Below are positions 444 to 62,648 of a DNA stretch of 64,000 bases, piece after piece. Source of the DNA: an uncultured Verrucomicrobiota bacterium. GTDB lineage: Bacteria; Verrucomicrobiota; Kiritimatiellia; CAIQIC01; Lenti-01. The stretch's first letter is position 1; each line of letters begins with the position of its first letter. The DNA lies in the NCBI GenBank assembly GCA_964399775.1, contig CAYNSH010000001.1, forward strand, positions 56,370 through 120,369, given 5' to 3'. A program made the position numbers and the translations under genes. The notes below the pieces were generated by a model, which worked only from the letters and a program-made list of their open reading frames with translations, searched no databases and was not told the DNA's origin.

Positions 444-625
444 TGCCAGAAGCCCTTCAACGCATCCCGGTCGAGTCCGGGCTGGTCGCCCGGCGCCCTT
501 ACGAGAAGCCGCGGATCACCCGCGTGGACCTGGCCCTGGCCGAAACCCTATCGGAAGGCTGCAAACTGGAGACCAATCCGGGCTGCGTGGGACCGCCCAT
601 CACGGCCTACGAGGGAGGTTCGTGA
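440..625 (+). CDS. 61-aa protein, a candidate modified-peptide (RiPP-like) precursor with a C-terminal Ser (…AYEGGS), in an operon with the rSAM and the kinase.
   Basis: Its ATG overlaps the rSAM stop (acATGAtg), with GGAG 9 nt upstream. Its TGA overlaps the GTG start of the kinase (GTGA). The segment KPRITRVDLALAETLSE resembles the PqqA-type leader recognition motif, and the C-terminal Ser matches known substrates of HprK-like kinases in lasso-peptide clusters. Confidence 0.45.
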   Translation: MMPEALQRIPVESGLVARRPYEKPRITRVDLALAETLSEGCKLETNPGCVGPPITAYEGGS

Positions 626-1662
626 CCGGCAACGGTCATCTGGATATCGGTCCGCTGCGGTTCGCGCTGCGGACCGATCGGTCTGCCCCGGTGCGATATG
701 CCGACCCGGCGTATACGGGATTCTTTTCGACCTCCGGGGAGTTCAATATTCAATATTCAATATTCAATATTCAACATTCAAGGGTCGAGGGGTTGGCGCG
801 CTGGCCCAGCGCGCCGGGATGCGAAGACTTCGACATTCGACATTCGACATTCGACATTCAGCCTTCGAGGGAAGCGGTGGCCTGCGCTCCGCCTCCTGTC
901 CATCCCCTTCTCGAATTACCCGTGGCGATCACCGAAGGCGTTGGCGAAATACCTGCCACTCCGCCGCTGTGGCGCGCGGGGAACCACTGGGCGGTCTGGG
1001 ATGATGGGGCGGAACTGGCTTTCCACGTTGGCCTCGAAGCGCCGGAGGCGGTGCGGGCGTCGTGTCGCGTCGCGAAGAATGTATCGCGGGCGGAGCTGAC
1101 GGTGCATCCGTCGGCCTGGAAGGACGGCATCTGCCAATCGCCGTTGAAATATCCCCTGGACCAGATCTTGAGCTGGGGTCTGCTATCGAAAATCGGCGGG
1201 GCGCTCTTGCATGCGGCGGTGGCGGTGAAGGACGGGGTGGGGATCGTTTTCGCCGGCCGCAGCGGCGCGGGCAAATCGACGCTGGCGGGATTGTGCCATG
1301 CGGCGGGCTGGCGGATTTTGAACGACGACCGGGCGGTGGTGTTCCGTCGTGGCGGCGAATGGCGCGTGGCGGGTACGCCGTGGCACGGATCGGGGCGCTT
1401 TGCCGAAGCGGCCGAGGTGCCGCTGGGCGGCGTGTACCTGTTGAAACAGGCGCGGGAAAACCGGATCGAGCCGCTGGCCGCGGCGCAGGCCCGGCTGGCG
1501 TTGCTGGACGTGGCGGCGGTGCCGTGGTTCGCCGAGGAGTGGTCGCAGGGCATGTTGGACGGGCTGGACCGGCTGGTGCGCGAGGCCAAAGCCGCGCAAT
1601 TCCATTTCACGAAAACGGCGGCGGCGGTCGACGCGCTGGCGGGGGAGGCGGCGTGGACGTGA
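622..1662 (+). CDS. HPr-kinase-related P-loop kinase (HprK C-terminal-domain family, 'HprK-related kinase' type). The N-terminal region contains an in-frame 41-codon repeat element (742-861). An alternative start lies after the element, near GTG 922.
   Basis: Contains GIVFAGRSGAGKSTLAGL…NDDRAVV…GTPWHGSG, the HprK-like Walker A and capping motifs. The GTG at 622 follows a GGAGG and overlaps the upstream stop. The ORF-track version starting at 427 is probably an over-extension. Confidence 0.55.
   Translation: MTGNGHLDIGPLRFALRTDRSAPVRYADPAYTGFFSTSGEFNIQYSIFNIQHSRVEGLARWPSAPGCEDFDIRHSTFDIQPSREAVACAPPPVHPLLELPVAITEGVGEIPATPPLWRAGNHWAVWDDGAELAFHVGLEAPEAVRASCRVAKNVSRAELTVHPSAWKDGICQSPLKYPLDQILSWGLLSKIGGALLHAAVAVKDGVGIVFAGRSGAGKSTLAGLCHAAGWRILNDDRAVVFRRGGEWRVAGTPWHGSGRFAEAAEVPLGGVYLLKQARENRIEPLAAAQARLALLDVAAVPWFAEEWSQGMLDGLDRLVREAKAAQFHFTKTAAAVDALAGEAAWT
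742..861 (+). repeat. Composite repeat element, copy 1. It has (ATTCAAT)n, a GC-rich palindrome GGCGCGCTGGCCCAGCGCGCC, and (ATTCGAC)4. It lies in-frame within the kinase ORF.
   Basis: The tandem heptamers and the central palindrome are visible directly. A near-identical element lies at 1668-1796. Confidence 0.8.
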
Positions 1663-1667: not shown

Positions 1668-1796
1668 GAATTCAATATTCAATATTCAATAATCCATCTT
1701 CAATCTTCAATGGGATTGCAAGGTAGGGCGCGCTGGCTCAGCGCGCCGGGATCCAAGAACTTCAACATTCGATATTCGATATTCGACATTCGGCGT
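1668..1796 (+). repeat. Composite repeat element, copy 2, with the same architecture as 742-861. It lies 6 nt downstream of the kinase stop and is followed by CACGAAT-type inverted arms (1815-1890).
   Basis: Reads (ATTCAAT)n … GGCGCGCTGGCTCAGCGCGCC … (ATTCGAY)n. Confidence 0.8.
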
Positions 1797-1958
1797 TCTG
1801 CCGAGCCGGGATGTGAACCACGAATGACACCAATGGACACGAATAGAAAGCAGGACAAGTTTTCCCCTTTCGTGGATTTTGCGTCTTTCGTAGTGGAACC
1901 GGCTGCCGGACTTTCATCCGTGGGCCGCCGCAGGCATCCGTGGGGGAACCCTCTTGGT

Positions 1959-11041: not shown

Positions 11042-12305
<1,264 letters not shown>

Positions 12306-12309
<4 letters not shown>

Positions 12310-13331
12310 GCGCGTCGTCAGGCCTCGTTGCCGTCCTCACCACGATCCAGCCGCCCACGCCGGCCGTGCGCGAACTGCATCGACGGCTGGCGGAATCCGG
12401 CGGCCGCCTCGTCGTGGCTGGCGATCAGAAGGGTCCCGCCGCGTTTGATCTGCCCGATTGCGATTTTCTCAGCCTGGCCGACCAGCAATCCAGCGGGTTC
12501 GCTCTGGCGGAAAAGTTGCCGGTGGGCCACTACGCCCGCAAGAACATCGGCTATCTCCATGCCATCCGCGCCGGCGCGGCGTGCCTCTACGAAACCGACG
12601 ACGACAATGCGCCCCTGCCGGGGTGGGCGCCGCGCACCGAAATTGTGGACCATGCCCGGCGCATTTCCGGTTCGGGTTGGGTGAACGCGTATCGCCACTT
12701 CGCCGAGGATCCGCAAATTTGGCCCCGCGGCTTTCCCTTGGAACAACTGAATTCCATCATTCCATCATTCCATCATTCCATCCTCTCAGCCTCTCCTCTC
12801 CGCGCACCCATCCAGCAGGGGTTGGTCAATGGATCGCCCGACGTGGATGCCGTCTGGCGGCTGACGCAGGACCGCCCGTTTGATTTTGACGAAGCCGCGC
12901 CCCTTTGGCTCGGCCCGGGCCAATGGTGCCCGTTCAATACCCAAAGCACGTGGTGGTGGCCCGCCGCCTATCCGCTACTCTATGTGCCGAGCCACTGCTC
13001 CTTTCGCATGTGCGACATCTGGAAAAGCTTCATCGCCCAGCGCTGCCTGTGGGCCATGGGCTGCGGCGTGGTGTTCCATCCGCCCGAGGTGCTTCAGGAC
13101 CGCAACCCCCACGATTATCTCCGCGATTTCCAGGACGAGGTTCCCGGCTACCTCCAAAATGCACGCATCGCCGAGATTCTCTCCGGCCTGGAACTGGCCG
13201 AAGGCGAGGGGGCCGTGGCGGACAATCTCTTGGCCTGCTACCGAGCCTTGATCCAAGAGACTGTTTTTCCCCCCGAAGAATGGACGCTGGTCAAGGCTTG
13301 GGTGCGGGATGGCTTCACCAGATCACCTTGA
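12306..13331 (+). CDS. DUF288/STELLO-like putative glycosyltransferase-family protein. Carries an in-frame (ATTCCATC)4 repeat insertion (12751-12803).
   Basis: HYARKNIGYLHAIRAGAACLYETDDDN…WWWPAAYPLLYVPS. ATGA overlap with wzt. The internal octamer repeat encodes SIIPSFHHSILSASPL. Confidence 0.45.
12751..12803 (+). repeat. (ATTCCATC)4 plus a CT-rich tract, embedded in-frame in the CDS.
   Basis: Direct tandem octamers seen in sequence, from the same ATTC-core family as the intergenic arrays. Confidence 0.8.
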
Positions 13332-13698
13332 TGGGATAGAGCGGGAAATGATCATCGCTGGAACAAACCATCATGTTTTCGTGGATGGCTTGGGCGACAA
13401 TCAGCCGGTCGAACGGGTCCCGGTGATGAAAGGGGAGGTCGTTCAGCCCGCACAGGTGGGGTGGCTCGATGGGCAGATTCCGGAACCCCTCGGCCAGTCT
13501 TTTCGAGATGAACCGTTCGAGCGGATCGTCCAAGACCAATTTGCCCAGGCTGCACTTGATGGCGATTTCCCACCACGAGGCCATGCTGATGAACACCGTC
13601 GTGTCCGAGTCTTCGATGGCGGCTCGCGCCGTCGGACTCAGCCGTTCGTCTCCCCCTGCAAACCAGAGCAGGGCATGCGTATCCAGCAGCAATTTCAT
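13315..13698 (-). CDS. vapC: PIN-domain toxin VapC (type II TA).
   Basis: MKLLLDTHALLW…D…E…D are the PIN acidic residues. Paired with an upstream Phd/YefM antitoxin through a 4-nt overlap. Confidence 0.8.
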   Translation of the reverse strand: MKLLLDTHALLWFAGGDERLSPTARAAIEDSDTTVFISMASWWEIAIKCSLGKLVLDDPLERFISKRLAEGFRNLPIEPPHLCGLNDLPFHHRDPFDRLIVAQAIHENMMVCSSDDHFPLYPIKVIW

Positions 13699-13922
13699 TG
13701 CTCGTACTCGGCCATGTCACTCAACGGCGCGTCAAAATCGGGGGCCATGTGAATCCGGCCTTTGGCGCTGCCATAAACCGGCCGGTTTTCCCGGACTTCG
13801 CTGGGGCCCAGCGTGGCCACGGGTTTTCCGCGACGGGTCACGGTGAAAATTTCGCCGTGGACAACGCGCTCCAGCAACTCCGAGAAATGCGTCTTGGCTT
13901 CAAAGGCTCCAATGGTTTTCAT
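13695..13922 (-). CDS. Phd/YefM-family antitoxin.
   Basis: MKTIGAFEAKTHFSELLERV…GEIFTVTRRGKPVATL is the typical YefM fold. Overlaps the vapC start. Confidence 0.75.
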   Translation of the reverse strand: MKTIGAFEAKTHFSELLERVVHGEIFTVTRRGKPVATLGPSEVRENRPVYGSAKGRIHMAPDFDAPLSDMAEYEQ

Positions 13923-14010
13923 GCAACTAGTCTAACCGACTGGTCTGTTATTTGCAAGGGGCTTCTTCCTGTGGGTAAACCGATGCTTTTGTTGATGTAA
14001 TTATTTGTCT

Positions 14011-14967
14011 ATGAAAGAAATAAACAACAATTTTCATTTGGAGCCGCTGCCGCCCAATCCGCTGATTTCCATCGTGGTGCCCAGCTACAACCAGGGGGCA
14101 TTCATCCGCCAGACCCTCCAGGCCTGCCTCGACCAGGACTACCGGCCCATCGAGATCGTGGTCATGGATGGCGCCTCGACCGACCATACCGTGGAAGTGC
14201 TTAAATCTTTCGGCAATCTTCCCGAACTGCGCTGGGTGTCCGAACCCGACAAGGGCGTGGTGGACGCCGTCAACAAGGGGCTTCGCGCCGCACGCGGCGA
14301 CATCGCCTGCATCCAAAGCTCCGATGACTTCCATCGGCCGGGTTGTTTTTCCACCGTGACGGCGGCCTTCCGCGACAACCCCGAGGCCGGATTGGTCTTC
14401 GGCGATGTCGAGCGGGTGGACCCGGACAACCGCGTCGTTTATTCCCCGCGGCAGGCGCGGTTTTCGCTTGCGCGCCTGCTCGCGCGCCAACTCTACATCT
14501 ACCAGCCCACCGCATTTTTTCGCCGCGATCTGGCCCTGGAGCTTGGCGGCTGGAATCCGGATATCCCCTATGTGCCGGACATCGACCTGTGGATTCGCTT
14601 GGCCTTCCATGCCCCGGTGGTCCAGTGCGATGCCGTGCTCGCGGCCTACCGGACGCATCCCGGCCAGCGCGACCAGCACCGCGACCGGATCTACCGCGAC
14701 TACCGGCGCATGCTGGAGCTGTCCAAGGAACTGCCCGCGGCATCCCGGCGGTTGCGCCGCGCGGCGCAAGCGGGGGCCGAGCTGATGAAGTTCCGCTATG
14801 GCGGGCCGTGGACGAACGCCCAGTTGACTCGCGCCGCCTGGAAGGCCCTGTGGCTGCGGCCCAGCTTACTGTTCTCCCCCAAGCTGCCGTTCTACCGCCT
14901 CATCCCCGGTTATTTCACCCTGACCGGCTGGCGCCGCCAATGGCTCGGCCCGAAGAAAGGCGCCTGA
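14011..14967 (+). CDS. Family 2 glycosyltransferase.
   Basis: ISIVVPSYNQGAFIRQTL…VVMDGASTD…DDF. The first ATG follows an AT-rich putative promoter region (13923-14010). The ORF track starts at TTG 14005. Confidence 0.7.
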   Translation: MKEINNNFHLEPLPPNPLISIVVPSYNQGAFIRQTLQACLDQDYRPIEIVVMDGASTDHTVEVLKSFGNLPELRWVSEPDKGVVDAVNKGLRAARGDIACIQSSDDFHRPGCFSTVTAAFRDNPEAGLVFGDVERVDPDNRVVYSPRQARFSLARLLARQLYIYQPTAFFRRDLALELGGWNPDIPYVPDIDLWIRLAFHAPVVQCDAVLAAYRTHPGQRDQHRDRIYRDYRRMLELSKELPAASRRLRRAAQAGAELMKFRYGGPWTNAQLTRAAWKALWLRPSLLFSPKLPFYRLIPGYFTLTGWRRQWLGPKKGA

Positions 14968-15989
14968 TGGCTACGCTGCGGCAACAACTCGGTTGCTGGG
15001 TGCGCGAACGCGGGCGGATGGAGTTGGTCTTGCGCGCCCCGCGCCTCGCCGCGCGGTTTGGCTGCCGCTGGCAGGACCTGTGCAACCGCCATGAGCGTTT
15101 GTCGCGTGGCCCCGGCACCGCCCGCGGCTGCGCGTGGCCGGGATCTTCCTTTTTGACCGCCTGCAAAGTGTTTCCCAGCCTGGGCGGCCGCCTGCTGGAG
15201 CATGTCGCGCGAGAATATCCTTTTTCATTGGACCCGCAGTCGGAGGTCCCGCCGGTTTCCGCCATCCTCCCCGTGCGCGGCACCGACCGCCGCCCCGCGC
15301 TCGAATTCGTGGTGCGCGCCCTGTGCGCCGCCGGCGGGCCGCATGCCGAAGTGCTGGTATGCGAGCACGACACCCAGCCGCGCCTGGCGGACATCGCCTG
15401 GCCCGCCGGCGGCCGGCACCTCTTCATCCCGGCGGCGGAAGGGGAACTCTTCAACAAGAGCAAAGCCCTCAACGCCGGGGCCCTCGCGGCCCGCCATCCG
15501 CTCCTGCTGCTGCACGACGCCGATGTCTGGGTGCCCGCCGGCTATGTCGCGCGCAGCGCCGCGCTCATGGGAGAGGGTGGCTGGGAGGCGCTGCGCCCGA
15601 TCCGCTTCCTGTTCCTGCTCGATGAACCCCAGACCCGCGGCTGCCTGGCTACCGCCTCCATCCGCGGTATCCAGGAAATCATGCGCGTGCAGCAGAACAA
15701 TCCCGGTTTGTCGTCCTTCGTGCGCCGCGACACCTATCTGGAGATCGGCGGCCACGACGAGCGCTTCACCGGCTGGGGTTGGGAGGATGTCGAATTCCTC
15801 GATCGCCTCCACACTCGCCGCCTGCTGCCCGGATCGTTCCTGCCGGCCATCCATCTGTGGCATGCGCTGCCGGCCGCAAGGCAGGCGGGGGACGTGAACC
15901 AGCAGCGGCTCCACGAGATCCTACAAGAGCCCGTCGGGCAGCGCATCGAGGCTTGCCGCCGTCGCCTGGCCGCAGGGGGCGCACCATGA
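14967..15989 (+). CDS. Glycosyltransferase (GT2 / galactosyltransferase-like, GWGWEDVEF motif).
   Basis: SAILPVRGTDRR…LLHDADVWVP…ERFTGWGWEDVEFLDRL. The ATG overlaps the upstream stop (TGATG). Confidence 0.6.
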   Translation: MATLRQQLGCWVRERGRMELVLRAPRLAARFGCRWQDLCNRHERLSRGPGTARGCAWPGSSFLTACKVFPSLGGRLLEHVAREYPFSLDPQSEVPPVSAILPVRGTDRRPALEFVVRALCAAGGPHAEVLVCEHDTQPRLADIAWPAGGRHLFIPAAEGELFNKSKALNAGALAARHPLLLLHDADVWVPAGYVARSAALMGEGGWEALRPIRFLFLLDEPQTRGCLATASIRGIQEIMRVQQNNPGLSSFVRRDTYLEIGGHDERFTGWGWEDVEFLDRLHTRRLLPGSFLPAIHLWHALPAARQAGDVNQQRLHEILQEPVGQRIEACRRRLAAGGAP

Positions 15990-17005
15990 ATTGGCTGGTG
16001 ACACCGTCCCGGTTCGAGGGCCTGCCCGGCGCGGGCCAATGGAAGGACCTGCACGGTATCCGGCTCGTGCTCGACCGCCTCGGAATCGATTGGGGAGAGT
16101 TCCGCTTTTCCGGCGCGAACATCGGCGAGTTGGCCGACCGGATCGGAGAAGCGGCGGACACGGCCATCTGGTACTACACCTTTTGGCCCGAGGCCATGGC
16201 CGAGTTGAAACGCCGCTGCCCGCGTACGCGGATGGTCTTGCGCACCGTCAATGCCGAGGCTTTCCAGCACTGGCTGCGCGCCGGCAAGGACTGGACCCGC
16301 CTGCGCGGATTGCCGCGCGATGTCTATGGATTTGTGCGTTTGCTGTGGCGCGACCGCCGCTGTGCGCATCTCGCCGATGCGCTGGCGGGCATCAGCCCGT
16401 GGGACGACGCCCGCTACTGGCGCTGCCTGGCTGGACGCGACAAGGTGTTTTCCGCACCGTATCTATGTCCCTGGCCGGTGCTGCTGCCGACCGTTCTGCC
16501 GCGCCCCTGGGTGGAGCGCGAAGACCGGATCGTCTGCCTCGCTGGCGCGCGCGATGTCATTGGTCGCGCACACCTCGAAGGATTTGCCGCATTGGCCCGG
16601 CGTCCGGAATGGACTGGCTGGCAGTTTTCCGCAAGCCAGGGACTGATCGGCGACGGCCACGACGACCTGCCCGAAAACGTCGAGCGCCTCGGCTGCCTCG
16701 ACGAGCCCTGGTCGCTGCTCTGCCGGGCCAAGGCCGTGGCCGTGCTTTCGCCCGTCGGCTATGGCTTCAAGACCACCATCGCCGACGCGCTGGCCGCCGG
16801 TTGCCATGTCCTGGTCCATCCGCGCCAGCATGCCCGGCTGGCGCTGGAGGACCGATGCCGGACCCTCGCTTGCGAGCCGAACTCGGCCGACCTCCCCGCG
16901 CTGGCCGCGACACTTGCCGCGCCGCCGGAACTCACCGCCGCCGCGGCGCAGGCGGAGCAGCTCGAACGAACCATTGGCGCCTGGCGGCAGGTGCTGGCAG
17001 GATGA
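15986..17005 (+). CDS. Putative glycosyltransferase (GT-B / GT1-GT4-like C-terminal domain).
   Basis: ATGA overlap. A C-terminal Rossmann-like segment: LAGARDVIG…VLSPVGYGFKTTIADALAAGCHVLV. Assignment is weak. Confidence 0.4.
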   Translation: MNWLVTPSRFEGLPGAGQWKDLHGIRLVLDRLGIDWGEFRFSGANIGELADRIGEAADTAIWYYTFWPEAMAELKRRCPRTRMVLRTVNAEAFQHWLRAGKDWTRLRGLPRDVYGFVRLLWRDRRCAHLADALAGISPWDDARYWRCLAGRDKVFSAPYLCPWPVLLPTVLPRPWVEREDRIVCLAGARDVIGRAHLEGFAALARRPEWTGWQFSASQGLIGDGHDDLPENVERLGCLDEPWSLLCRAKAVAVLSPVGYGFKTTIADALAAGCHVLVHPRQHARLALEDRCRTLACEPNSADLPALAATLAAPPELTAAAAQAEQLERTIGAWRQVLAG

Positions 17006-17035
17006 GTCGCAGGCGGCTGGAAGGTATCCCGTGAA

Positions 17036-18343
17036 ATGAACGCCGAACAACAAAAACTAGTGGCCCAGCTCTGGCAGGAGCGCCCTAAACTCTATGTGCA
17101 TGGTGCGGGGACGGGATGCGTGGATTTGACCGGACAGGACGGCAAGGAGGAGGCCTGGCCGCTCTCGCCGGACGTGCTCAACTGGATGGCGGAGGTGGTC
17201 GCGCCGGGAGCCGTCACGCTCGAAACCGGCTGCGGCTATTCCACCATGTTGTTCGCCATTCTCGGCGCCCGGCATACCGCCATCGCGCCAGACTACCAGC
17301 AACATGGACGTATCACCGGCTGGTGCGAACGTCACGGCGTTTCCTGCGGCAACCTGCGCTTGATTGATGCCTGTTCGCAGGACGTGCTGCCGGGGCTGGC
17401 GCTCGACCCCCTGGATCTGGTGCTCATTGATGGTAGCCACGCATTCCCGGCGCCCTTCATCGATTGGTATTACACCGCCGAAAAACTCAAGCCGGGCGGA
17501 ATCCTCATCGTGGATGACTGCCATCTGGTGACCGGGAAAATCCTGGCCGATTTCCTCGAAGCGGAGAATGGACGCTGGGAATTGGTGCGTCGATTCGGCA
17601 AGACGAGCGTGTTCCGCAAGATCGCTGCCAATCCTGTGGTGGCGGGTTTTGAGTGGATCGATCAACCCTACTGCGCCAAGCGGCTGGGCGCTCCCCCCCC
17701 GCAGGGGCTTCGTGCCCGCCTGCGGCGGATGCTCCAGCCGCTGGGCCGGTTGAACTCCCAGCACTATCTCGCCTATCGCCTGGGCTTGGCGCGGCCGCGC
17801 ACCGAAACCACCGCCGCGGAACGCGCCTGCCTCCATCGCCATGCGGCCGGCCGGAAACGCCTGGCGGAAATTGGCGTCTTCCAGGGCGTCAACACGAAAG
17901 CCTTTCGCCAGGCGATGGCTTCCGACGGCGTGATCCTCGCGGTGGATCCCTTTCCGCGCTCCTTTTTTGGCATCCGCGGCTTTGGCTGGGCACGCCGCAT
18001 CGCCCACCGCGAAGTCGGCTTGGTCCCCAACGGCCGCGTGGTTTGGCTTGAATGCCGCGGCCAGGATGCGCCGGTCGCCGCGGCGGCTCGCCCGTTTCTG
18101 CCGGTGGATTTTCTGTTCATCGATGGCGACCACGGCTACGAGGGCCTGCGCGGCGACTGGGAAGCCTGGAAGGATCACATTGCGCCGGGCGGCATCGTCG
18201 CCCTGCACGATTCTCGCAACCGCCGCGGACGTGGCGCCGAGCGCTTCACCCATGAGGTGATTCGCCAGGACCCGGATTTCGTCCTGCTCGAGGAAGTGGA
18301 TTCCTTGACCGTCCTGCGCCGGCGTGGGCCCGAGGAAAGCTGA
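17036..18343 (+). CDS. Tandem class I SAM-dependent methyltransferase (two TylF/Methyltransf_24-like domains).
   Basis: LETGCGYST…LIDGSHAF appears in the first half and IDGDHGYEGLRGDWEAW…ALHD in the second half. Confidence 0.6.
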   Translation: MNAEQQKLVAQLWQERPKLYVHGAGTGCVDLTGQDGKEEAWPLSPDVLNWMAEVVAPGAVTLETGCGYSTMLFAILGARHTAIAPDYQQHGRITGWCERHGVSCGNLRLIDACSQDVLPGLALDPLDLVLIDGSHAFPAPFIDWYYTAEKLKPGGILIVDDCHLVTGKILADFLEAENGRWELVRRFGKTSVFRKIAANPVVAGFEWIDQPYCAKRLGAPPPQGLRARLRRMLQPLGRLNSQHYLAYRLGLARPRTETTAAERACLHRHAAGRKRLAEIGVFQGVNTKAFRQAMASDGVILAVDPFPRSFFGIRGFGWARRIAHREVGLVPNGRVVWLECRGQDAPVAAAARPFLPVDFLFIDGDHGYEGLRGDWEAWKDHIAPGGIVALHDSRNRRGRGAERFTHEVIRQDPDFVLLEEVDSLTVLRRRGPEES

Positions 18344-18350
18344 GGTCAGC

Positions 18351-19322
18351 GTGAGCGATACGACTCCAGCTTCCCCTGCCGTTTCCGTCGTGATGGGCGT
18401 GTTCAACGGCGCCCGCTGGCTGTCCGACACCCTCGACAGCCTGCAGGCGCAAACGGACGGCGACTGGGAATTGATCGTGGTCAACGACGGCTCCTCCGAG
18501 CCGCAGGTGGGGGACCTGCTGGCGGAGCGGGCCGCGCAAGATCCGCGCATCCGCGTGATCGCCAAATCCCACGAAGGCCTGACGCGGGCGTTGATGGACG
18601 GCTGCGCCGCCGCGCGCGGGGCCTATATCGCGCGCATAGACGCCGGCGACATCCTGTTGCCCGACCGCCTGCGCCGGCAGCGCGCGGTGCTGGACCGGCA
18701 TCCAGGCGTGGGTTTTGTCTCCTGCTGGACGGAATTCTGCGGGCCGGAGTGGGAGCCGCTCTATGTCCGCCAAGGCCGTGGCACACCCGAAGAGGGCGCC
18801 GACGTTCTGCCTATGCGCCCCGGCGAAAATCTAACCGACGGCCCCACCAGCCATGTCTCCGTGCTGTTCCGGAAAGAGCTGTACGATGCGGTCGGCGGCT
18901 ACCGGCCGGAGTTCTACTACGGCCAGGACTGGGACCTGTGGTATCGGCTGGCGGAACGCAGCCAGTTCTCAATGGTCCCCGAAGTCCTCGCCCGCGTGCG
19001 CCTCTTCCCGGAAAGCCTCAGCGCGGGCGCCCGCGAACGGCAGGAGCAGATCGGGCGCTGTTCCCTCGGCGCGTTCTGGGCGCGCCGCGAAGGCCGCCCC
19101 GAAGCCGAATGGCTCGCGCGCGCCGCGGTCCTCCGCCCGGAGGCCTCCGCGCGTGCGCCGCGGCCCTCCGGCGAAGGCGCTCGCTTCATCGGCGAACTGC
19201 TGCGGAAGAACGGCGATTCGCGCTGCCGGCGCTATTTCCGCGCCGCATTGCGGGCCGATCCCCTGGATGCGCGCGCGGCCTTCCGCCTGCTCCAGTCATT
19301 CCTTCCCGGAGGGAGCCGATGA
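18351..19322 (+). CDS. Family 2 glycosyltransferase.
   Basis: VSVVMGVFNGARWLSDTL…IVVNDGSSE…DAGD. GTG 18351 follows GAGG. The alternative start GTG 18324 overlaps the upstream gene. Confidence 0.6.
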   Translation: MSDTTPASPAVSVVMGVFNGARWLSDTLDSLQAQTDGDWELIVVNDGSSEPQVGDLLAERAAQDPRIRVIAKSHEGLTRALMDGCAAARGAYIARIDAGDILLPDRLRRQRAVLDRHPGVGFVSCWTEFCGPEWEPLYVRQGRGTPEEGADVLPMRPGENLTDGPTSHVSVLFRKELYDAVGGYRPEFYYGQDWDLWYRLAERSQFSMVPEVLARVRLFPESLSAGARERQEQIGRCSLGAFWARREGRPEAEWLARAAVLRPEASARAPRPSGEGARFIGELLRKNGDSRCRRYFRAALRADPLDARAAFRLLQSFLPGGSR

Positions 19323-20470
19323 AGATCCTCTTTGCCGCCGATGTGCATCCCGATCCGGATTCCGGCGCCGCCGGCACGGAGCTGCGCACCATCGAGGCGC
19401 TGCGGGAACTGGGCCACGACGTGGATGCGCTCTGGGCCGGCGACCTGCGCCGCCGCATCCGCCACGGCAACCTCCACTATCTGCTCGAACTGCCGTGGGC
19501 CTATCGCGACGCGATTGCGGCGCGCTCGGCGGAGAAACCCTACGACGTGGTCCACGTCAACCAGCCCCAGGCCTGGCTGGCGGCGCGGGAGCACCGTCGC
19601 CTGCGACGACCCGGCGTATTCGTCAACCGCAGCCACGGGTGGGAGCCGCGCATCGCCGAAGCCCTGCGGCCGTGGCGGTGGAAATACGGCGTGCCCGAGT
19701 GGCGCTTTCCGCGCGGCGTGGCCGGCCGCCCGGTCCGGTATGCGCTGCATGGCCTCTATCCGCGCTGGTGCGCCACCGCCAGTGACGGCGTCATCGTGAG
19801 CTGCTCCGAAGATCGCGAATATCTCCTGTCGCACTACGGATTGGCCCCAGACCGCGTCGCCTGCATCCCGCAGGCGCCCGCCCCGGTGTTCACGGCGACG
19901 CCGGTGCCGCCGATGACGCGCGCGCGGCTGAATCGCGTGCTCGTCGCCGGGCAGGTCGCATTCTTCAAGGCGCCGCATGTCGTTGCCGAGACGTTCTCCC
20001 TCCTCGCCGCCCGGAATCCGGATCTGTCGTTCACCTGGTGCTGCCCGGAATCCGCGCACGCCGAATGGCGGGCGCGCCTAACACCTGCCGCCCGCGCGCG
20101 CACCGCGTTCGTCGGCTGGATGCCGCAAGAGCAGCTTGTGCGCCTCTACGACGCGCACGGGATTTTCCTCTTCCCTTCCTACACGGAAGGCTTCGGCAAG
20201 GTCTTTCTCGAAGCCATGGCGCGGGGTCTGTGCGTGGTGGCCTCCGATGCCGCCGGCATGCGCGACGTGATCCGCGACGGCGCCACCGGCCACCTGGTGC
20301 CCCCCGGCCATGCCGCTGAATTCGCCGCGAAGATCGAAGCCGCGCTGGCGGATCCCGGCACGGCGGCGCTCGCCGCGAACGCCACCGCCGCCGCCCGCGC
20401 CTTCACGTGGCGGCGCGTCGCTGAAGAGACCGCCGCCTTCTATAACGGAGTCAGGCCGCGCCTTCTATAA
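19319..20470 (+). CDS. Family 4 (GT-B) glycosyltransferase.
   Basis: MKILFAAD…EGFGKVFLEAMARGLCVVASDAAGMRDVIRDGATGHLV is the EX7E-type motif. ATGA overlap. Confidence 0.75.
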   Translation: MKILFAADVHPDPDSGAAGTELRTIEALRELGHDVDALWAGDLRRRIRHGNLHYLLELPWAYRDAIAARSAEKPYDVVHVNQPQAWLAAREHRRLRRPGVFVNRSHGWEPRIAEALRPWRWKYGVPEWRFPRGVAGRPVRYALHGLYPRWCATASDGVIVSCSEDREYLLSHYGLAPDRVACIPQAPAPVFTATPVPPMTRARLNRVLVAGQVAFFKAPHVVAETFSLLAARNPDLSFTWCCPESAHAEWRARLTPAARARTAFVGWMPQEQLVRLYDAHGIFLFPSYTEGFGKVFLEAMARGLCVVASDAAGMRDVIRDGATGHLVPPGHAAEFAAKIEAALADPGTAALAANATAAARAFTWRRVAEETAAFYNGVRPRLL

Positions 20471-20530
20471 CGGGGTCAGGCCGTAACTATACACTCTAAG
20501 AGAAAAGTGTAAAGTTACGGCCTGACCCCG
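20471..20530. terminator. Long perfect stem-loop (17-bp stem CGGGGTCAGGCCGTAAC … GTTACGGCCTGACCCCG) between convergent genes. Likely a bidirectional terminator. No T-tract.
   Basis: The inverted repeat is seen directly. The loop contains a nested inverted repeat, ACACTCT…AGTGT. Confidence 0.55.
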
Positions 20531-20545
20531 TACGGCGCGGCGGGC

Positions 20546-21532
20546 TCAGCGGGGGCGGGGTTTTGGAAGCAGGCGCTTGAGGGCGACGTAGAGCCGGACG
20601 CCGGCGGGAACGCCGGCGAGGCGCGACAGCGCGCGGAGAATCCGGTTGGGTTCTCGGGGGCGGAAGCCGGACACCAGCTCCCGGCAATGAGCCCATGCGC
20701 GGGCCCATTCGGCGGGATCGTGGCGTGCGAGTACCTGGGCGTCGCGGTAGAAGTATTGCGCGAGGCGCCGCCGCCGTTCGGGCGTCAGCGCATCCTGCGC
20801 GCGCAATCCGTTTTCGACCATTCGGAGCAGTTGCTGGCGTGCGCGGGTGGAGCGCAGGACGACGTCGCCGCCGCGCGTGATGCGCCGGCCGGCGTGGTGG
20901 TTGTAGATGCACGAGGGCCGGTCGAGCGAATGGAACCGCGCGCCGGCCAGGCCAACGGTCAGCGCCCAGCCCCAGTCCTGCGCCTTGGTCCAGGCGGGAT
21001 CCCAGCGCAGCGGGCGGATGAAATCGGCCCGATACAGCGCGGCGTGCACGCACGGTGCAATGCCCAGCAGCATGTCGTCGATGCCGCCGGACAGGTCCGG
21101 CGCGGGACGAAGACGCCGCCGCGTTTCGTCTTCCATGCCATCCGCGCCGAACGTGCGCTCCTCCCATCCGGTCAGCAGGGCGTCGCAGCCAGAGGCGCGC
21201 GCGGCTTCTACTTCTTTCGCCAAGGCGCCAGGCAACAGCTCGTCATCGGAATCCAAAAACTTGACGAATGCCCCGCGCGCCAGCGCGAGGCCGGCATTGC
21301 GCGCGACGCAGGCGCCCTGGTTGTCCTGCCGGACCAGCCGGATGTCGCGGTCGAGCCGGTCGGGGAATTCGCGCGCGAGCGCGGCGCGGAGGTCGTCGGT
21401 GGAGCCGTCGTCCACCACGACGATTTCCACTGCGCCCGTTTGTTCGAGGCACGAGCGCACGGCGCGGCACAGCTCCGCCGGCCGGTTGAAAACCGGAATC
21501 ACCACGCTAACGTCGGGGCGTTCCGGGCTCAT
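20546..21532 (-). CDS. Family 2 glycosyltransferase.
   Basis: VSVVIPVFNRPAELCRAVRSCLEQT…VVVDDGSTDD. The start is at MSPERPD (codon 47 of ORF 20546..21670), which overlaps the stop of the upstream minus-strand gene in an ATGA. Confidence 0.7.
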   Translation of the reverse strand: MSPERPDVSVVIPVFNRPAELCRAVRSCLEQTGAVEIVVVDDGSTDDLRAALAREFPDRLDRDIRLVRQDNQGACVARNAGLALARGAFVKFLDSDDELLPGALAKEVEAARASGCDALLTGWEERTFGADGMEDETRRRLRPAPDLSGGIDDMLLGIAPCVHAALYRADFIRPLRWDPAWTKAQDWGWALTVGLAGARFHSLDRPSCIYNHHAGRRITRGGDVVLRSTRARQQLLRMVENGLRAQDALTPERRRRLAQYFYRDAQVLARHDPAEWARAWAHCRELVSGFRPREPNRILRALSRLAGVPAGVRLYVALKRLLPKPRPR

Positions 21533-22734
21533 GCGGAAGCCTCCGACAGGAACGTCTCCATGCGCCGCAGATATGGGAGGAAGCGCTCGCGGAACACGTC
21601 CGCATAGGCATACTCCGGGCGCCCGAGCTGGTAGTGGCCTAGGTTCAGGCCGACGAGCAGGAACAGCCATTCGGCGGCGCGTCGGATGTCCGGGTGGGCT
21701 TCCGGGCCATGGAAGCGGGCGATGGAGGTGGCGATGACGGCGGCAAGATCGCCGTCATGGAGCGCCAGCACCGACTCCAGGGCGTTGAAGAGGAAGTAGG
21801 CGAGGTCGTAGCTGAGGAACCCCATGCCGCCGCCGGCGTAGTCCAGCAGCACCAGCTCCCCGTCCTGCACCAGCAGGTTCTGGAGGCTGAAATCGCTGTG
21901 GTTGAAGCCTTCCGGCAGCGCCGCCAGCCGGGTTCGCACGCGGTCTTCATGGGCCGCCAGCCAGCCGAATACATGGCGGAACCGCGCCTGGTCCTCCGGT
22001 GGCAGTCCGTCTGGAATGTCGTCGGGGCGGATGGCAAACACGCTGGTGACCCGATCGCGCCGCCGCGCCACCCGCAGGGTCGAGAGCGTGCGGGCGAGGT
22101 CCACGACGGCATGAAATTCGTCCAGGGTCTTCAAGGGCGGGTGTCCGCCGGAAATGTACGGGTAGGCCGCGGCGGTGAATCCGCCGATGGGGCCGGTCCA
22201 CAGCAGCGCGGGCACGCGGATGCCGCGCTCATCGAGTTGGCGGCGGATGTCCGGGTTTTCTTCCAGATGTACGCAGACTTTCAGAAAGATGGTGGCGTCG
22301 TCGGCGTGGGTGCGCGCGATGGTCATTTTGTCCAGAAACAGGCTGGCCAGTCCGCGGTAGGGCAAGATGTCGTGGGTGAACCGCGTGGCGTCGGCGAAGC
22401 CGATGGCCTGGCACAAGCCCCGCAGGGCCACGGCGTGTGCATCGAGAAATCCGGTGGCGAGGATGGCGATGAAATCGCGGTAGGCGTCTTCGGGCAGATG
22501 GCTGCTCTTGGCGAGGTGGAAGAGGAAGCGCAGTTCGCCGGGGCGGAACCGGCCGGCCGGGTGGGCGGCGGTGGCGCGGCGCAGCGCCTCGGGGTCGCGC
22601 TCCAGCAGCGCGCGCAGCACGGCGGCGCGTCCGGCGAACAGCAGCGCGGGCGGCACCAGCCGGGACAGCAGCGGATGCGCATGGATTTTCCGGCGCAAGC
22701 GAAGTCCAAGAGCCTGGGGCAAGAGCGGGGTCAT
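21529..22734 (-). CDS. APH-like (aminoglycoside/choline-kinase fold) phosphotransferase.
   Basis: The C-terminal 401 aa of the long ORF 21529..24912. Brenner motif HSDFSLQNLLVQDGELVLLDYAGGG. Start MTPLLPQ overlaps the GT4 stop. Confidence 0.6.
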   Translation of the reverse strand: MTPLLPQALGLRLRRKIHAHPLLSRLVPPALLFAGRAAVLRALLERDPEALRRATAAHPAGRFRPGELRFLFHLAKSSHLPEDAYRDFIAILATGFLDAHAVALRGLCQAIGFADATRFTHDILPYRGLASLFLDKMTIARTHADDATIFLKVCVHLEENPDIRRQLDERGIRVPALLWTGPIGGFTAAAYPYISGGHPPLKTLDEFHAVVDLARTLSTLRVARRRDRVTSVFAIRPDDIPDGLPPEDQARFRHVFGWLAAHEDRVRTRLAALPEGFNHSDFSLQNLLVQDGELVLLDYAGGGMGFLSYDLAYFLFNALESVLALHDGDLAAVIATSIARFHGPEAHPDIRRAAEWLFLLVGLNLGHYQLGRPEYAYADVFRERFLPYLRRMETFLSEASA

Positions 22735-24789: not shown

Positions 24790-24792
24790 ACC

Positions 24793-26268: not shown

Positions 26269-26296
26269 AGCGTCTCGGAGTCATGAGGAGGTCGGA

Positions 26297-27476: not shown

Positions 27477-28466
27477 ATGGTAGAAAACAAGCCAATTCCC
27501 ATGCAAACCTTCCAACAGCCTGAACGGGGAGATTCTTGCGTCGGCGTGGTCATTCCCACCTATCGGCGCGGCGCGGTGCTGCTGGAGACGCTGACGCATC
27601 TTCTTGAACTGGTTCCGCCGCCGGACGAAATCGTGGTGGTCGACCAAACCGAGGTCCATCCCCCCGATGTGGAAGAGACCTTGCAGGAGTGGGAGCGGGG
27701 GGGGCAGTTGCGGCGGTTGCGGATTTCGCCGCCCTCGATCCCGTGCGCGATGAATGCCGGCCTGCTGCAGGCCCGCGGTGGGATTGTCCTGTTTTTGGAC
27801 GACGATCTTGTGCCGGAGCCGGGGCTGATCGCGCACCACCGGCAAGCGCATGCGGAGCATCCCGACGCCTGGGCGGTCGTGGGCCAGGTGCTGCAGCCCG
27901 GAGAGGAGCCTTCCGCGTCGCCCCCGAGCCGCAAGGGGGGCAGCGCGCTCCGGCGCGATCTGGATTTTGCGTTCAATGGCATCGAACCGGCATGGGTGGA
28001 GAACGTCATGGCCGGCAATCTATCGGTCAAGCGCAGCCAGGCTTTGGCCGTTGGCGGATTCGATGAAAACTTCATCCCGCCGGTGTCGTTCCGATTTGAA
28101 ACCGAGTTTGCCCGGCGGCTGGTGGCCGCCGGCGGAAAAATCTGGTTCGAGCCGCAGGCGGCCATCCGCCATCTGCGTGCGGGCAGCGGCGGGACCCGCG
28201 CACGGGGAGGCCACATGGCCAGCGCTTCGCCCCTGCACGGCGTCGGCGACACCTACTATGCCCTGCGGCGCGGTCGCGGCTGGGACAGACTTTGGCATAT
28301 TCTCAAGCGGCCATTCCGCGAGGTCTGCACGAAATACCACCTGCGGCGTCCATGGTGGATTCCGGTCAAGTTCATCGGCGAACTCCGGGCGCTGGTGCTG
28401 GCGATCCGTCTGCATCGGGCAGGACCAAAGCTCCTAACCACGAAGGATGCGAGCGCGCACGAGTAG
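27477..28466 (+). CDS. Family 2 glycosyltransferase.
   Basis: CVGVVIPTYRRGAVLLETL…VVVDQTE…DDD. Start choice is uncertain: ATG 27447, 27477 and 27501 are all possible. Confidence 0.6.
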   Translation: MVENKPIPMQTFQQPERGDSCVGVVIPTYRRGAVLLETLTHLLELVPPPDEIVVVDQTEVHPPDVEETLQEWERGGQLRRLRISPPSIPCAMNAGLLQARGGIVLFLDDDLVPEPGLIAHHRQAHAEHPDAWAVVGQVLQPGEEPSASPPSRKGGSALRRDLDFAFNGIEPAWVENVMAGNLSVKRSQALAVGGFDENFIPPVSFRFETEFARRLVAAGGKIWFEPQAAIRHLRAGSGGTRARGGHMASASPLHGVGDTYYALRRGRGWDRLWHILKRPFREVCTKYHLRRPWWIPVKFIGELRALVLAIRLHRAGPKLLTTKDASAHE

Positions 28467-28633
28467 AAAACCATGACGATCCGGGGACCTGGCAACCACG
28501 AATGGCACGAATGAACACGAATAGAGAACGGATCCGGGGTTTTACCATTCGTGTAGATTCGAGTGATTCGTGGTTGGCTGTCTTGATAGAAATCCAGTAA
28601 CCACGAATAGCACGAATGAACACGAATAGGAGG
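28466..28633. repeat. Left copy of a ~170-bp repeat flanking the GxxExxY gene. It consists of CACGAAT(A/G)-type heptamer arms in inverted orientation around GAGAACGGATCCGGGGTTTTA.
   Basis: About 95% identical to 29046-29215. The internal inverted repeat AACCACGAAT…/…ATTCGTGGTT is seen directly. Confidence 0.8.
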
Positions 28634-28641
28634 GCATCAAA

Positions 28642-29019: not shown

Positions 29020-29045
29020 GGCATACCCACGAATGGTTAGAGATA

Positions 29046-29255
29046 GAAAACCATGACGATCCGGAGACTTGGCAACCACGAATAGCACGAATGAACAAGA
29101 ATAGAGAACGGATCCGGGGTTTTACCATTCGTGTAGATTCGAGTGATTCGTGGTTGGCTGTCTTGATAGAAATCCAGTAACCACGAATAGCACGAATGAA
29201 CACGAATAGAGAACGGGTCGGAAGCTTAACATTCGTGTATATTCGAGTTATTCGT
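29046..29255. repeat. Right copy of the flanking repeat, with one extra degenerate unit.
   Basis: A direct repeat of 28466-28633. The GTG that opens ORF 29254 lies inside it. Confidence 0.8.
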
Positions 29256-29274
29256 GGTTAAATCAATCCCAGTG

Positions 29275-46540: not shown

Positions 46541-47251
46541 ATGGAAACGGCTGAAAGCCTGCGGGGGAAGGTGGCGCTGGTGACGGCCGGCGCCCGGCGC
46601 ATCGGGGCGTCCATCTGCCGCGAGCTGGCGGCGCGCGGCGCCAGCGTGGTTGTGCATTACCACCACTCCGAGGGCGAGGCGCTCGCGTTGAACCGCTCGC
46701 TGGGTCGCGGCGTGTTTTCGGTGCGCGGCGACCTGTCCACCGCCCAGGGCTGCGAATGGGTCTTCCACGAAGCCGTCGAATGGATGGGGCGGGTGGATAT
46801 TCTGGTCAACAACGCCTCGCTTTTCGCCCGCGACGGCGAAATGGAGCCGCCGGCCCTGCGCGCCATCAACGTCGAGGCTCCCCTGCACCTCGCGGGGAGG
46901 GTGGCCGCGCAACCGTCCGGCGGATGCGTCATCCATCTGCTCGACAGCCGCATCGCCCGCGCGGAACCAGGCGGTTTCTCCGCCTACGCCGCGACCAAGC
47001 GCGAACTGGCCGAGTCGGTGCCGCGCTGCGCCCGCGAATGGGCCCCGCGCGTCCGCGTCAACGGCGTCGCCCCCGGCCCCGTCCTGGCGCCGGAAGGCGT
47101 CCGCGAACCCGCCGGCGACCTCCCCCTCGGGCGGCGACCCGATCCCGAAGACGTCGCCCGCGCCGTCGCGTTTCTTGCCGAAGCCGGCGCCGTTACCGGT
47201 CAAATCCTGTTTGTCGACGGCGGGCAGCATCTGGGGAATAAGCTGGAATGA
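46541..47251 (+). CDS. SDR-family oxidoreductase.
   Basis: GKVALVTAGARRIGASI (TGxxxGxG-like) and NNAS…YAATK are the catalytic YxxxK elements. Confidence 0.75.
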   Translation: METAESLRGKVALVTAGARRIGASICRELAARGASVVVHYHHSEGEALALNRSLGRGVFSVRGDLSTAQGCEWVFHEAVEWMGRVDILVNNASLFARDGEMEPPALRAINVEAPLHLAGRVAAQPSGGCVIHLLDSRIARAEPGGFSAYAATKRELAESVPRCAREWAPRVRVNGVAPGPVLAPEGVREPAGDLPLGRRPDPEDVARAVAFLAEAGAVTGQILFVDGGQHLGNKLE

Positions 47252-47295
47252 TGGAATGTGGGAATGCTGGAATGTGGGAATGATGGAATAATGGA
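47252..47295. repeat. (TGGAATGN)n tandem array, the GGAAT orientation of the ATTCC family.
   Basis: gatggaatgtgggaatgctggaatgtgggaatgatggaataatgg. Confidence 0.75.
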
Positions 47296-50772: not shown

Positions 50773-51109
50773 TCAAGGGAACAGCCGGAGGACGTTTTAG
50801 ACAGGATGAACAGGATTTTTCAGGATTCACAGGATTGAACAGCCGATTGGCCACAAAGCTTTCCAAGCCGCAGGCATGGAGCACAAAGAGGTTTTGGCTC
50901 CAGGCCTCCAATCGTGTCGCTCTCTGTGTTCTATGTGCTCTATGTGGCTGATTCATTTTTCCTTTGTTTCCTGTGTTCCTGCTTGGGCTTTCTGCCCGAC
51001 CTGATTCACCCCTGCCACGAGGGCATGGGGGTCTTTTTGGGCGTTGTGGATTGACGGGGGGTTGGATAGAGTGGGCGGCCCGATTGGGTTGAACGGAAAG
51101 AGGCCGCGC

Positions 51110-62390: not shown

Positions 62391-62537
62391 ATTCTATCGG
62401 CGCGGCGCTTGCCCCCTTCGGCCTTGTGCGTTGGGGGCGGCAACGTGGTTTTTTCCCAAGGGGCCCGGGCGGGGGATGCCGCCGGGCCGGGAGATTCTTT
62501 TGGCGGGAACGGTTCACGTCCCTGTGTTGCCGCGCTC

Positions 62538-62648
62538 TTCCATCCCAACATTTTACCATTCCACCATTCCACCATTCCACCATTCCAATATCCCAATATT
62601 CCATCATTCCATTCCTCCAGTATTCCCTCTCCCCATCCCCCCCCCCCC
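62538..62648. repeat. (ATTCCAC)4 / ATTCCAT heptamer array ending in a C12 homopolymer that abuts the exonuclease ATG.
   Basis: ccattccaccattccaccattccaccattccaatatcccaatattccatcattccatt…cccatcccccccccccATG. Confidence 0.8.

Follow-up and report, generated by a model that had tools for sequence, protein, structure and literature searches.

Short-period repeat arrays in a Kiritimatiellia genome fall into two classes, one of them including hairpins that border a small GxxExxY gene cassette

The question raised by this locus, a 64 kb window (the whole stretch of DNA analysed here, ~65% GC) of the genome of an uncultured Kiritimatiellia bacterium, is what the arrays of short tandem repeats scattered along it represent. 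The original prediction, made from the sequence, regarded them as one family of 7- and 8-nt units with a shared ATTC/GAAT core, hotspots of slipped-strand mispairing that would act as a contingency locus for polysaccharide and surface genes. We lean towards another answer, namely that short-period repeats here form a mosaic from which intergenic spacers and tolerant protein linkers are built, and that the arrays are not programmed frame-shift switches. Folding divides them into contiguous, unstructured arrays (class A) and spaced, inverted, hairpin-forming ones (class B), two structurally different classes at least, which the single-family view had merged. One of the class B hairpins, built of CACGAAT units, is the boundary of a small cassette that carries a GxxExxY gene (PD-(D/E)XK fold) and is present or absent between 166-nt direct repeats.

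All the arrays listed in the prediction were recovered, at or near the positions given for them, by Tandem Repeats Finder (TRF) and a scan for exact runs, and they are spread along the whole window; arrays of other units are also found in relatives. The one described as GGAATG at ~47252 is really an 8-mer, TGGAATGN, repeated 6.5 times at 47244-47295. Scoring only exact heptads that occur at least three times in a row, 0-3 nt apart, gives 9 arrays in the window. None arose in any of 100 first-order Markov simulations of its sequence, which excludes chance as their origin. The ATTC/GAAT core is present in 8/9 of these exact arrays, and the claim of a shared core holds, within this genome, for all of them except one. 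There are 10 repeat loci between genes per 64 kb of window, and the arrays have 3-6.5 units, with the exception of a degenerate array of nine (79% match in TRF). At least six unit sequences coexist, none of them dominant, and the units ATTCAAT, ATTCGAT, ATTCGAC, ATTCCAC, ATTCCATC and ATTCGTG are mostly 1-2 substitutions away from one another, a near-identity that would fit arrays seeding one another. An origin of the units from tRNA or tmRNA was rejected (the one tRNA-Ser of the window is unrelated to the arrays), and an Rfam scan of the window gave no gathering-level match.

The arm of a class B element is made of three 7-nt units at a period of 9-10 nt, either of the CACGAAT type or, at 50.8 kb, of CAGGAT/CTCTRTG units. 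The CACGAAT hairpin has a very regular anatomy (AAC-CACGAAT-nn-CACGAAT-nnn-CACGAAT, a loop of ~24 nt, and ATTCGTG-nnn-ATTCGAG-nn-ATTCGTG-GTT), and the window contains three full hairpins of this kind, one lone arm and one decayed copy (Table 1). At 50801-50981 the outer arrays are ACAGGAT x4 versus TTCCTGT x3 and the inner ones CACAAAG x2 versus CTCTRTGTG x3, with the same 9-10 nt period. The inverted pairs that had been described as frequent in the family are real for the CACGAAT units, with their three hairpins, and for the element at 50801-50981, and do not extend to ATTCAAT and ATTCGAC, which are direct arrays around a GC-rich palindrome. Class B folds into long interrupted hairpins, and its CACGAAT type is dispersed over many phyla. 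When the pattern CACGAATNNCACGAATNNNCACGAAT was scanned in one genome per species, at least 120 stretches matched, in many phyla, where ~0.3 chance matches are expected (a hand estimate from pattern length and database size). Among the matches listed are Flavobacterium and other Bacteroidota (Prevotella), Planctomycetota, Verrucomicrobiota, Lentisphaeraceae, Acidobacteriota, Chloroflexota, Pseudomonadota, Sulfuricella, Zetaproteobacteria, Geobacteraceae, Desulfococcaceae, Clostridia, Cloacimonadota, Calditrichota, Ignavibacteria, Spirochaetia and Saccharimonadales. An in-register 3' arm (ATTCGTG x3, at least 17/21 heptad positions, within 700 nt) was found for 86 of the 156 arms listed, with loops of 2-612 nt. 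Across species and phyla the heptads are fixed and the spacers track the base composition of the host, the opposite of an identity generated by slippage.

Also among the matches listed, 117 of the 128 CACGAAT sites in other genomes (91%) are outside long open reading frames (ORFs), and of the sites that could be classified by their neighbours 62/94 lie between co-directional genes and 12/94 between convergent pairs, which are not preferred. Being imperfect palindromes of ~80-130 nt, multicopy and intergenic, the CACGAAT hairpins resemble repetitive extragenic palindromes (REP) and miniature inverted-repeat transposable elements. No transposase or recombinase was seen among the genes called within ~10 kb of the hairpins, nor was any target-site duplication recognised. 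Against Rfam, 18 CACGAAT loci gave two tRNA genes only and no family for the hairpins, and a scan of 28400-29300 at relaxed E-value gave only spurious matches to plant miRNA hairpins. Integron attC sites were also considered and rejected, there being no integrase among the called neighbours and a misfit of the core sites: GTTAAAT (at 29258) is the only 3' end that fits GTTRRRY, and the 5' sides TGGCAAC and CAGTAAC neither fit RYYYAAC nor pair with it.

The gene enclosed by these hairpins in the window codes for a small protein in which both the PD...ELK and the GxxExxY motifs appear intact, as read from the translation. Its ribosome-binding site, AGGAGG, is found directly after the 5' arm, before the gene. 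On both sides are the copies of the 166-nt direct repeat (98% identity, spacing of 580 nt, from a repeat search), and the 3' arm of the third hairpin (29231-29260) also pairs with the lone arm 28598-28627, across the gene. The orthologous gene of contig L011 is surrounded by the same order of elements (hairpin, lone 5' arm, gene, hairpin, hairpin), with conserved heptads and different spacers. Within the set of loci selected by their CACGAAT units, all five in which the arms of a pair are 380-620 nt apart enclose a GxxExxY gene (the window, L011, L057 from Prevotella, L071 from Prevotellaceae and L077 from Flavobacterium), and CACGAAT arms are present on one or both sides of 9/10 of the GxxExxY genes examined in that set, the tenth having a plain inverted repeat of ~45 nt around it (a judgement by eye).

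Because this set is biased towards the motif, we have examined a second sample, all eight GxxExxY genes found by tblastn in a collection of plasmids and chromids. In six of them, L195-L200, heptad-like repeats stand on either side of the gene; those of L199 and L200 are inverted and those of L196 and L197 direct. Bacteroides finegoldii (L199) and Bernardetia (L200) carry inverted triple heptads CACAGAG / CTCTGTG; Gemmatirosa (L195) has a downstream hairpin of CGCGGAT x3 / ATCCGCG x3; Prevotella nigrescens (L198) has arrays of ACAAATC and GATTTGG/GATTTGT units on both sides, Persicobacter (L196) TAATCC-type arrays in direct orientation on both sides, and the Fusobacteria representative (L197) a ~50-nt direct repeat with AATCCGTG units, again on both sides. 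The remaining two are Sphingomonas (L201), with CGCGAAG x3 upstream only and the gene between fabD and fabG, and Treponema (L194), with a single inverted CACGGAT unit. From lineage to lineage the two arms change together, as expected if they pair with each other or if both are read by one co-evolving protein, and the genes sit between ordinary co-directional genes. A second query of the same collection returned the same eight records and none further, there was no match to GxxExxY in phages, no relative in the PDB was found by sequence, and 443 kb of loci from Kiritimatiellia relatives held no other GxxExxY gene. A literature search with the heptad strings, GxxExxY and PDDEXK_3 found no description of these elements, and the GxxExxY family itself is almost absent from the literature searched.

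The cassette appears in two states. One metagenome contig (L136, sample ERZ27252296) is identical to the window over 24414-28629 and is there joined to the sequence from 29210 onward, with the 580-bp cassette missing; this empty form keeps one copy of the 166-nt repeat, no gene, and two complete solo hairpins. The contig carries the four variants that mark the left copy, all within the first ~52 nt of the repeat, and for that reason the junction is not a simple collapse of identical k-mers. The filled allele is present in other samples. The presence or absence of the cassette is the only population-level variation found at any repeat of the window, the unit numbers being constant, and the 580-bp indel is a recombinational gain or loss of the cassette, not a change of unit number.

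Class A comprises the units ATTCAAT, ATTCGAC, ATTCCATC, TGGAATGN and CCATTCCA. ATTCAAT and ATTCCATC are G-free, TGGAATGN is nearly C-free, and the array of CCATTCCA is in a G-free run (62535-62619) that is the only one of at least 45 nt in the window. Transcripts of class A arrays lack G or C and hence are unable to fold: the minimum free energy (MFE) is 0 kcal/mol for the (CCATTCCA)x9 region (62535-62650) and -2.9 kcal/mol, with a z of +1.2, for that of (TGGAATGN)x6.5 (47240-47310). Most of these arrays either stand within a few dozen bases of a start codon, on its 5' side, ending 10-23 nt from it, or lie in the variable linker of a protein.

A way to glimpse how long such arrays last is to look at the same junctions in relatives. 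Searching metagenome contigs with the PPDK_N-domain protein yielded 48 related loci (42-88% aa identity), and at the orthologous junctions the arrays of the window are absent, with other arrays, or none, instead: (CTGAACC)x1-4 immediately 5' of the ATG in L146, L147, L148 and L150, CGTGAAC-like units in L149 and L152, and CTGAACT/CCGACCT units downstream in L168. The array at 47244-47295 was not found in the relatives and the element at 50801-50981 is in none of them. A TRF survey of 395 kb of these relatives uncovered many more arrays (for example AATATCC with the inverse ATTGGAT, CAATGTC, GGAGTTA, CGTTCA and ACGGAGG x25), most of them without the ATTC core. By sequence comparison, class A arrays turn over completely between relatives of ~85% aa identity. 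The formation of 6-9-mer arrays is clade-wide while their sequences are lineage-specific and short-lived, a pattern that speaks for arrays arising and decaying locally and against a conserved regulon. The idea of a regulatory element conserved at the orthologous junctions was rejected, since relatives carry different arrays or none.

The array within a coding sequence allows a closer look. As predicted, the units at 12751 are inside a DUF288-like gene (ORF 12306-13331, Pfam STELLO PF03385) and are translated in frame as NSIIPSFHHSILSASPL. Searched against a protein database, the STELLO protein has an identical entry and thousands of homologs, of which the closest with a name comes from a Kiritimatiellia bacterium. 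Alignment of 17 homologs puts the array in a linker of variable length, between the invariant blocks IWPRGFPLE and RAPIQQGLVNGSPDVD. Where the window has (ATTCCATC)x4, exact, the gene of L011 (85% aa identity) has (GACCTCY)x4 followed by AATCCATC ATGCCAAC ATTCCGTC, which is a decayed form of the window 8-mer, and that of L012 (64% aa identity) has (CTCCGAC)x5.4 in the linker and (ATTTCAGG)x4.5 in another loop. All these arrays, in the three genes, keep the reading frame. The STELLO linker is a recurrent home of short-unit arrays, and the survivors are always in frame. Since the exact four units of the window correspond to three decayed ones in L011, expansion of the slippage type does occur over evolutionary time, and to this extent the slippage hotspot that had been proposed stands. 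The predicted changes in unit number were looked for in contigs from several ENA and JGI metagenomes, obtained by exact-protein look-ups with the STELLO protein and those of five other window genes. The unit count was identical in all contigs covering each array (L001-L005, L133-L135, L140, L141 and L143), with four units in all five that span 12751 (L001-L005). Invariant counts are what the prediction itself had named as grounds for refuting it, although the comparison has low power because the contigs belong to one near-clonal population (99.8-100% identical to the window) and are consensus assemblies. One of the JGI contigs (3300033177; L002/L007), compared with window 11929-23354, has 23 gap positions at 99.8% identity, and two genes of its glycosyltransferase region are called split or shortened; this points to an indel or frameshift at strain level in another part of the polysaccharide locus. 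Next to the STELLO gene, a PhdYeFM antitoxin and PIN toxin pair (13315-13925, minus strand), also conserved in L011, lies between glycosyltransferase genes, and the 3' end of the PIN gene overlaps that of the STELLO gene.

These data bear directly on the contingency-locus reading, in which slipped-strand changes in unit number would switch the STELLO glycosyltransferase by frameshift and retune the promoters or leaders of surface-polysaccharide genes. A change of one 8-nt unit at 12751 would indeed shift the frame, the perfect identity of its units implies a recent expansion, the copies of L011 are decayed, one contig (L008) ends inside the array, and the gene belongs to a glycosyltransferase/Wzx-Wzy-type locus. 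We nevertheless consider this explanation very unlikely. Four units make a short tract, whose number is constant in the contigs; it lies in a mid-gene linker where orthologs also carry in-frame arrays, pointing to selection for an intact frame; and comparable arrays adjoin housekeeping genes, preceding or following metH and the 5'-3' exonuclease, SDR and PPDK_N-domain genes, so that the supposed restriction to a polysaccharide and surface locus does not hold either. The spaced CACGAAT heptads are conserved across phyla while their spacers vary, and they belong to structured hairpins (z of -6 to -7). Of four features of contingency loci, the arrays have one, a unit not divisible by 3 in a coding sequence or leader, and lack unit-number polymorphism, a long tract and restriction to surface or host-interaction genes.

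A post-transcriptional regulon is another possible role, with the GAAT/ATTC units as cooperative sites for one host regulator, a DNA- or RNA-binding protein such as S1, Csp or a CsrA-type protein, which have been proposed for the TAACTGA repeats. The core common to 8/9 arrays would be accounted for, as would the many arrays that end shortly before start codons in the manner of TAACTGA repeats (PMC4679880); one strand reads GGAAT/GGAT, resembling GGA-type motifs, and the 9-10 nt period of the spaced heptads equals one helical turn. Still, orthologous junctions have unrelated units or none, which leaves no conserved regulon, the orientation relative to transcription is mixed and no candidate binding protein was identified in this analysis, all of which makes the proposal improbable. 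We would give a similarly low likelihood to Rho loading and mRNA punctuation, in which G-free, C-rich arrays would resemble Rho utilisation (rut) sites and the hairpins would be REP-like stabilisers of 3' ends or processing sites between cistrons. The G-free, C-rich and unstructured stretch of 85 nt that starts ~145 nt past the stop of a 1037-aa gene is what such a model calls for, and so are the location of the hairpins between co-directional genes in other genomes and their very high stability. Yet no U-run follows the hairpins, convergent gene pairs are not preferred, the TGGAATGN array is G-rich and not rut-like, and the tie to GxxExxY genes is left unexplained.

Our preferred reading, the mosaic of two classes, has a mechanistic side that differs for each class. 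For class A, replication slippage from local seeds would create and remodel the arrays, and these may persist because, in a genome of 65% GC, a spacer that is AT-rich and unstructured leaves the initiation region after it open; the C-rich, G-free array at 62.5 kb may alternatively serve in Rho loading. For class B, the putative nuclease would recognise its own heptads, and the cassette, possibly mobile, would be gained or lost via cleavage or recombination at the hairpins, the solo hairpins being gene-less derivatives by analogy with REPIN/RAYT or homing systems. Several points weigh against this interpretation. The open initiation region and the recognition of heptads by the nuclease, that is, its functional part, are what we infer. 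The CACGAAT-selected loci are biased to the motif and the unbiased GxxExxY sample amounts to only eight genes. The empty allele of L136 comes from a short-read assembly and could be an error in the assembly path. At 50801-50981 the outer arms pair in the MFE structure, yet this is not significantly more stable than shuffled sequences (z -1.15). The ATTCAAT/ATTCGAC arrays, which lie in direct orientation around a GC hairpin, are not a clean fit to either class, and slippage alone does not explain why the ATTC/GAAT core keeps recurring in this genome.

With more doubt than belief, we put forward a broader possibility: that miniature selfish cassettes form an undescribed class, spread across phyla, whose autonomous members are GxxExxY genes, each bounded by inverted triple-heptad arms that co-vary with the cassette lineage (CACGAAT, CACAGAG, CGCGGAT, CACGGAT and others); that the encoded nuclease recognises these hairpins and the gene moves or is lost through cleavage and recombination there ('hairpin homing'); and that the solo hairpins of Bacteroidota, the Planctomycetes-Verrucomicrobia-Chlamydiae group, Acidobacteriota, Chloroflexota and others are their gene-less derivatives. 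If so, the window would display a live filled/empty polymorphism of such a cassette, and confirmation would establish very small mobile or selfish cassettes of a new kind and supply the first functional hypothesis for the GxxExxY family. A triple-heptad hairpin shared by many phyla, consistently found around genes of a nuclease-fold family that has hardly been studied, could matter more than the arrays themselves.

Among known repeats, REP elements and their mosaics, the bacterial interspersed mosaic elements (BIME), and the REPIN-RAYT systems of Enterobacteria and Pseudomonas are short imperfect palindromes in the intergenic regions of operons, in combination with other motifs; in REPIN-RAYT a single-copy nuclease/transposase gene, of the HUH Y1 transposase type, is flanked by its own repeats. 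The hairpins of the window are alike in being dispersed intergenic palindromes that form mosaics and in flanking a nuclease-type gene. Their arms, however, are three heptads at 9-10 nt period and not the REP consensus, the same heptad is found across phyla, and the gene has a PD-(D/E)XK fold (GxxExxY) where RAYT is an HUH Y1 transposase. Intervening sequences of 23S rRNA, with a small ORF between inverted repeats, and free-standing homing endonuclease genes offer another parallel, the GxxExxY cassette being likewise a small selfish-looking ORF with an inverted repeat forming a long stem between conserved genes (fabD and fabG in Sphingomonas); it differs in its location outside rRNA, with no intron or intein, and its nuclease activity is putative. 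Simple sequence repeat contingency loci (Haemophilus, Neisseria, the neuO heptamers of E. coli K1) share with the window non-triplet units in a surface-glycan gene or upstream of one; they often have more than 10 units, lie near the 5' end or in promoter spacers, and vary in length among isolates, none of which was seen in the window.

An excess of heptamer repeats in bacteria was noted in 2007, and a paper of 2015 still found no detailed literature on them (PMC4692102). The GGGAATC units of Xanthomonas and the GGGGAYT units of Nostoc, the short tandemly repeated repetitive sequences of cyanobacteria, are tandem 7-nt units, mostly in ~4 copies, at well over 100 intergenic loci per genome; some are inverted pairs able to form stem-loops, close species differ in the length and sequence of the array at a given intergenic site, and the arrays are not linked to pathogenicity genes (PMC4692102). 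The window shares with them the tandem 7-nt units at many intergenic loci and the variation between relatives in length and sequence at the same site, and the Xanthomonas unit contains GAAT, as do the window units. The host is different, a Kiritimatiellia bacterium, and so is the composition: one dominant G-rich unit, with proposed G-quadruplexes, in Xanthomonas and Nostoc, against several AT-rich units in the window, G-free or C-free, with which no G-quadruplex is possible. TAACTGA direct repeats of Beggiatoaceae, Cyanobacteria and Bacteroidetes have 2-6 copies, mostly a few nt upstream of start codons and some within ORFs, and their patchy distribution across phyla suggests horizontal spread (PMC4679880). 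The window resembles them in its heptamer direct repeats near start codons, some in ORFs, and in the patchiness across phyla. They have a single unit, almost never inverted, and neither a hairpin class nor a gene cassette has been reported for them, while the window has both. The window differs from the known heptamer systems in its coexisting AT-rich units, its class of spaced-heptad hairpins and the PD-(D/E)XK-fold gene tied to these. The heptamer phenomenon is in this way extended to another phylum, two look-alike classes with different mechanisms are separated, and a surface-glycan gene is relieved of an unsupported phase-variation reading. The positions of all these features are collected in Table 1.

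Table 1. Repeat arrays, hairpins and cassette components located in the 64 kb window.
Feature	Position	Strand	Evidence or context
(ATTCAAT/TTCAATA)x5.7 contiguous heptamer array	742..781	+	TRF, exact run; left arm of composite element 1
GC-rich palindrome GGCGCGCTGGCCCAGCGCGCC, centre of composite element 1	795..815	.	Sequence; central hairpin of fold
(ATTCGAC/TTCGACA)x4.4 heptamer array	829..868	+	TRF, exact run; right arm of composite element 1
Composite element 2	1668..1796	+	(ATTCAAT)x6 at 1670-1711, palindrome 1727-1747, (ATTCGAT/ATTCGAC)x3.7 at 1767-1792
Decayed CACGAAT triple-heptad hairpin	1815..1890	.	5' arm AACCACGAATGACACCAATGGACACGAAT, 3' arm degenerate
(ATTCCATC)x4, exact	12751..12782	+	In frame within variable linker of STELLO/DUF288 glycosyltransferase 12306-13331
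Left copy of 166-nt direct repeat	28464..28629	+	Contains hairpin 28493-28576 and lone 5' arm
CACGAAT/ATTCGTG units	28493-28627		Between GT2 gene and GxxExxY gene
Hairpin (AAC-[CACGAAT]x3, loop, ATTCGTG/ATTCGAG/ATTCGTG-GTT)	28493-28576		-42.7 kcal/mol, z -6.1
Lone CACGAAT 5' arm	28598-28627		
GxxExxY / PDDEXK_3 small nuclease-fold gene, 125 aa	28642..29019	+	Pfam PF13366 E 1.6e-42; NCBIfam TIGR04256 E 3.8e-42
Right copy of 166-nt direct repeat	29044..29209	+	Contains hairpin 29073-29156 and 5' arm of hairpin 3
CACGAAT/ATTCGTG units	29073-29260		Between GxxExxY gene and GT4 gene
Hairpin in right 166-nt copy	29073-29156		
CACGAAT hairpin 3	29178..29260	.	Inverted-repeat search; -37.1 kcal/mol, z -7.0
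(TGGAATGN)x6.5 8-mer array	47244..47295	+	Overlaps SDR stop codon; ends 10 nt before ORF6N start
Nested inverted arrays	50801..50981	.	Between PPDK_N-domain gene and metH
(CCATTCCA)x9 array (62540-62626)	62535..62626	+	Ends 23 nt before 5'-3' exonuclease ATG

The direct arrays at the start of the window are part of a composite of ~130 nt that is present twice, as direct repeats flanking an ScmC-like gene (BLAST of 737-866 against 1666-1798, 80% identity). In the first copy the right arm is in direct, not inverted, orientation to the left one, and the whole (737-870) folds at -44.2 kcal/mol (z -4.25) with the palindrome GGCGCGCTGGCCCAGCGCGCC as its central hairpin; the second begins 6 nt past the stop codon of the ScmC-like gene. 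The ORF proposed by the gene caller (622-1662) spans the first composite entirely, and homology to the ScmC/HprK profile begins only downstream of it; the composite occupies either the leader or an N-terminal extension of the gene. This end of the window (1-1662) is part of a SynChlorMet-type cassette with a radical SAM protein, a 61-aa ORF and an ScmC/HprK-related kinase.

At the other junction examined in relatives, an ORF6N-domain gene (47305-47952) separates the SDR gene from the PPDK_N-domain gene. L146-L148, L150 and L154 have it and L151, L173 and L188 do not, and repeat arrays accompany the filled state only, the SDR gene abutting the PPDK_N-domain gene without an array in the three that lack it. 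Other relatives have more elaborate arrays. L153 carries a long one, (ACGGAGG)n with ~25 units, at 11816-11989, and L120, a Verrucomicrobia metagenome-assembled genome, has 6.7 kb with six different heptad arrays, one of them of TCCGACC, the unit also seen in the L012 STELLO linker. In L168 (1854-2162) there is a nested mosaic in which inverted (AATATCC)x5 / (ATTGGAT)x5 arrays enclose a GC-rich segment and four tandem palindromes, one of them a hybrid of the window type and that of the relative. Such a mosaic points to a single BIME-like system whose modules are arrays, GC hairpins and palindromes.

The window palindromes in question, GTTTTCCAYnnnRTGGAAAAC, number eleven, in tandem, in three intergenic clusters (47989-48109, 53712-53779 and 63909-63985, with 5, 3 and 3 copies). 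They contain a DnaA-box-like TTTTCCACA, and relatives have the same architecture with a compensated inner stem, GTTTTTACGTAGAACGTAAAAAC. The possibility that the TTTTCCAC...GTGGAAAA palindromes are clusters of DnaA boxes was rejected because relatives keep the hairpin while the inner stem changes to TTTTTACGT...ACGTAAAAA, and this compensation identifies them as a family of hairpin repeats.

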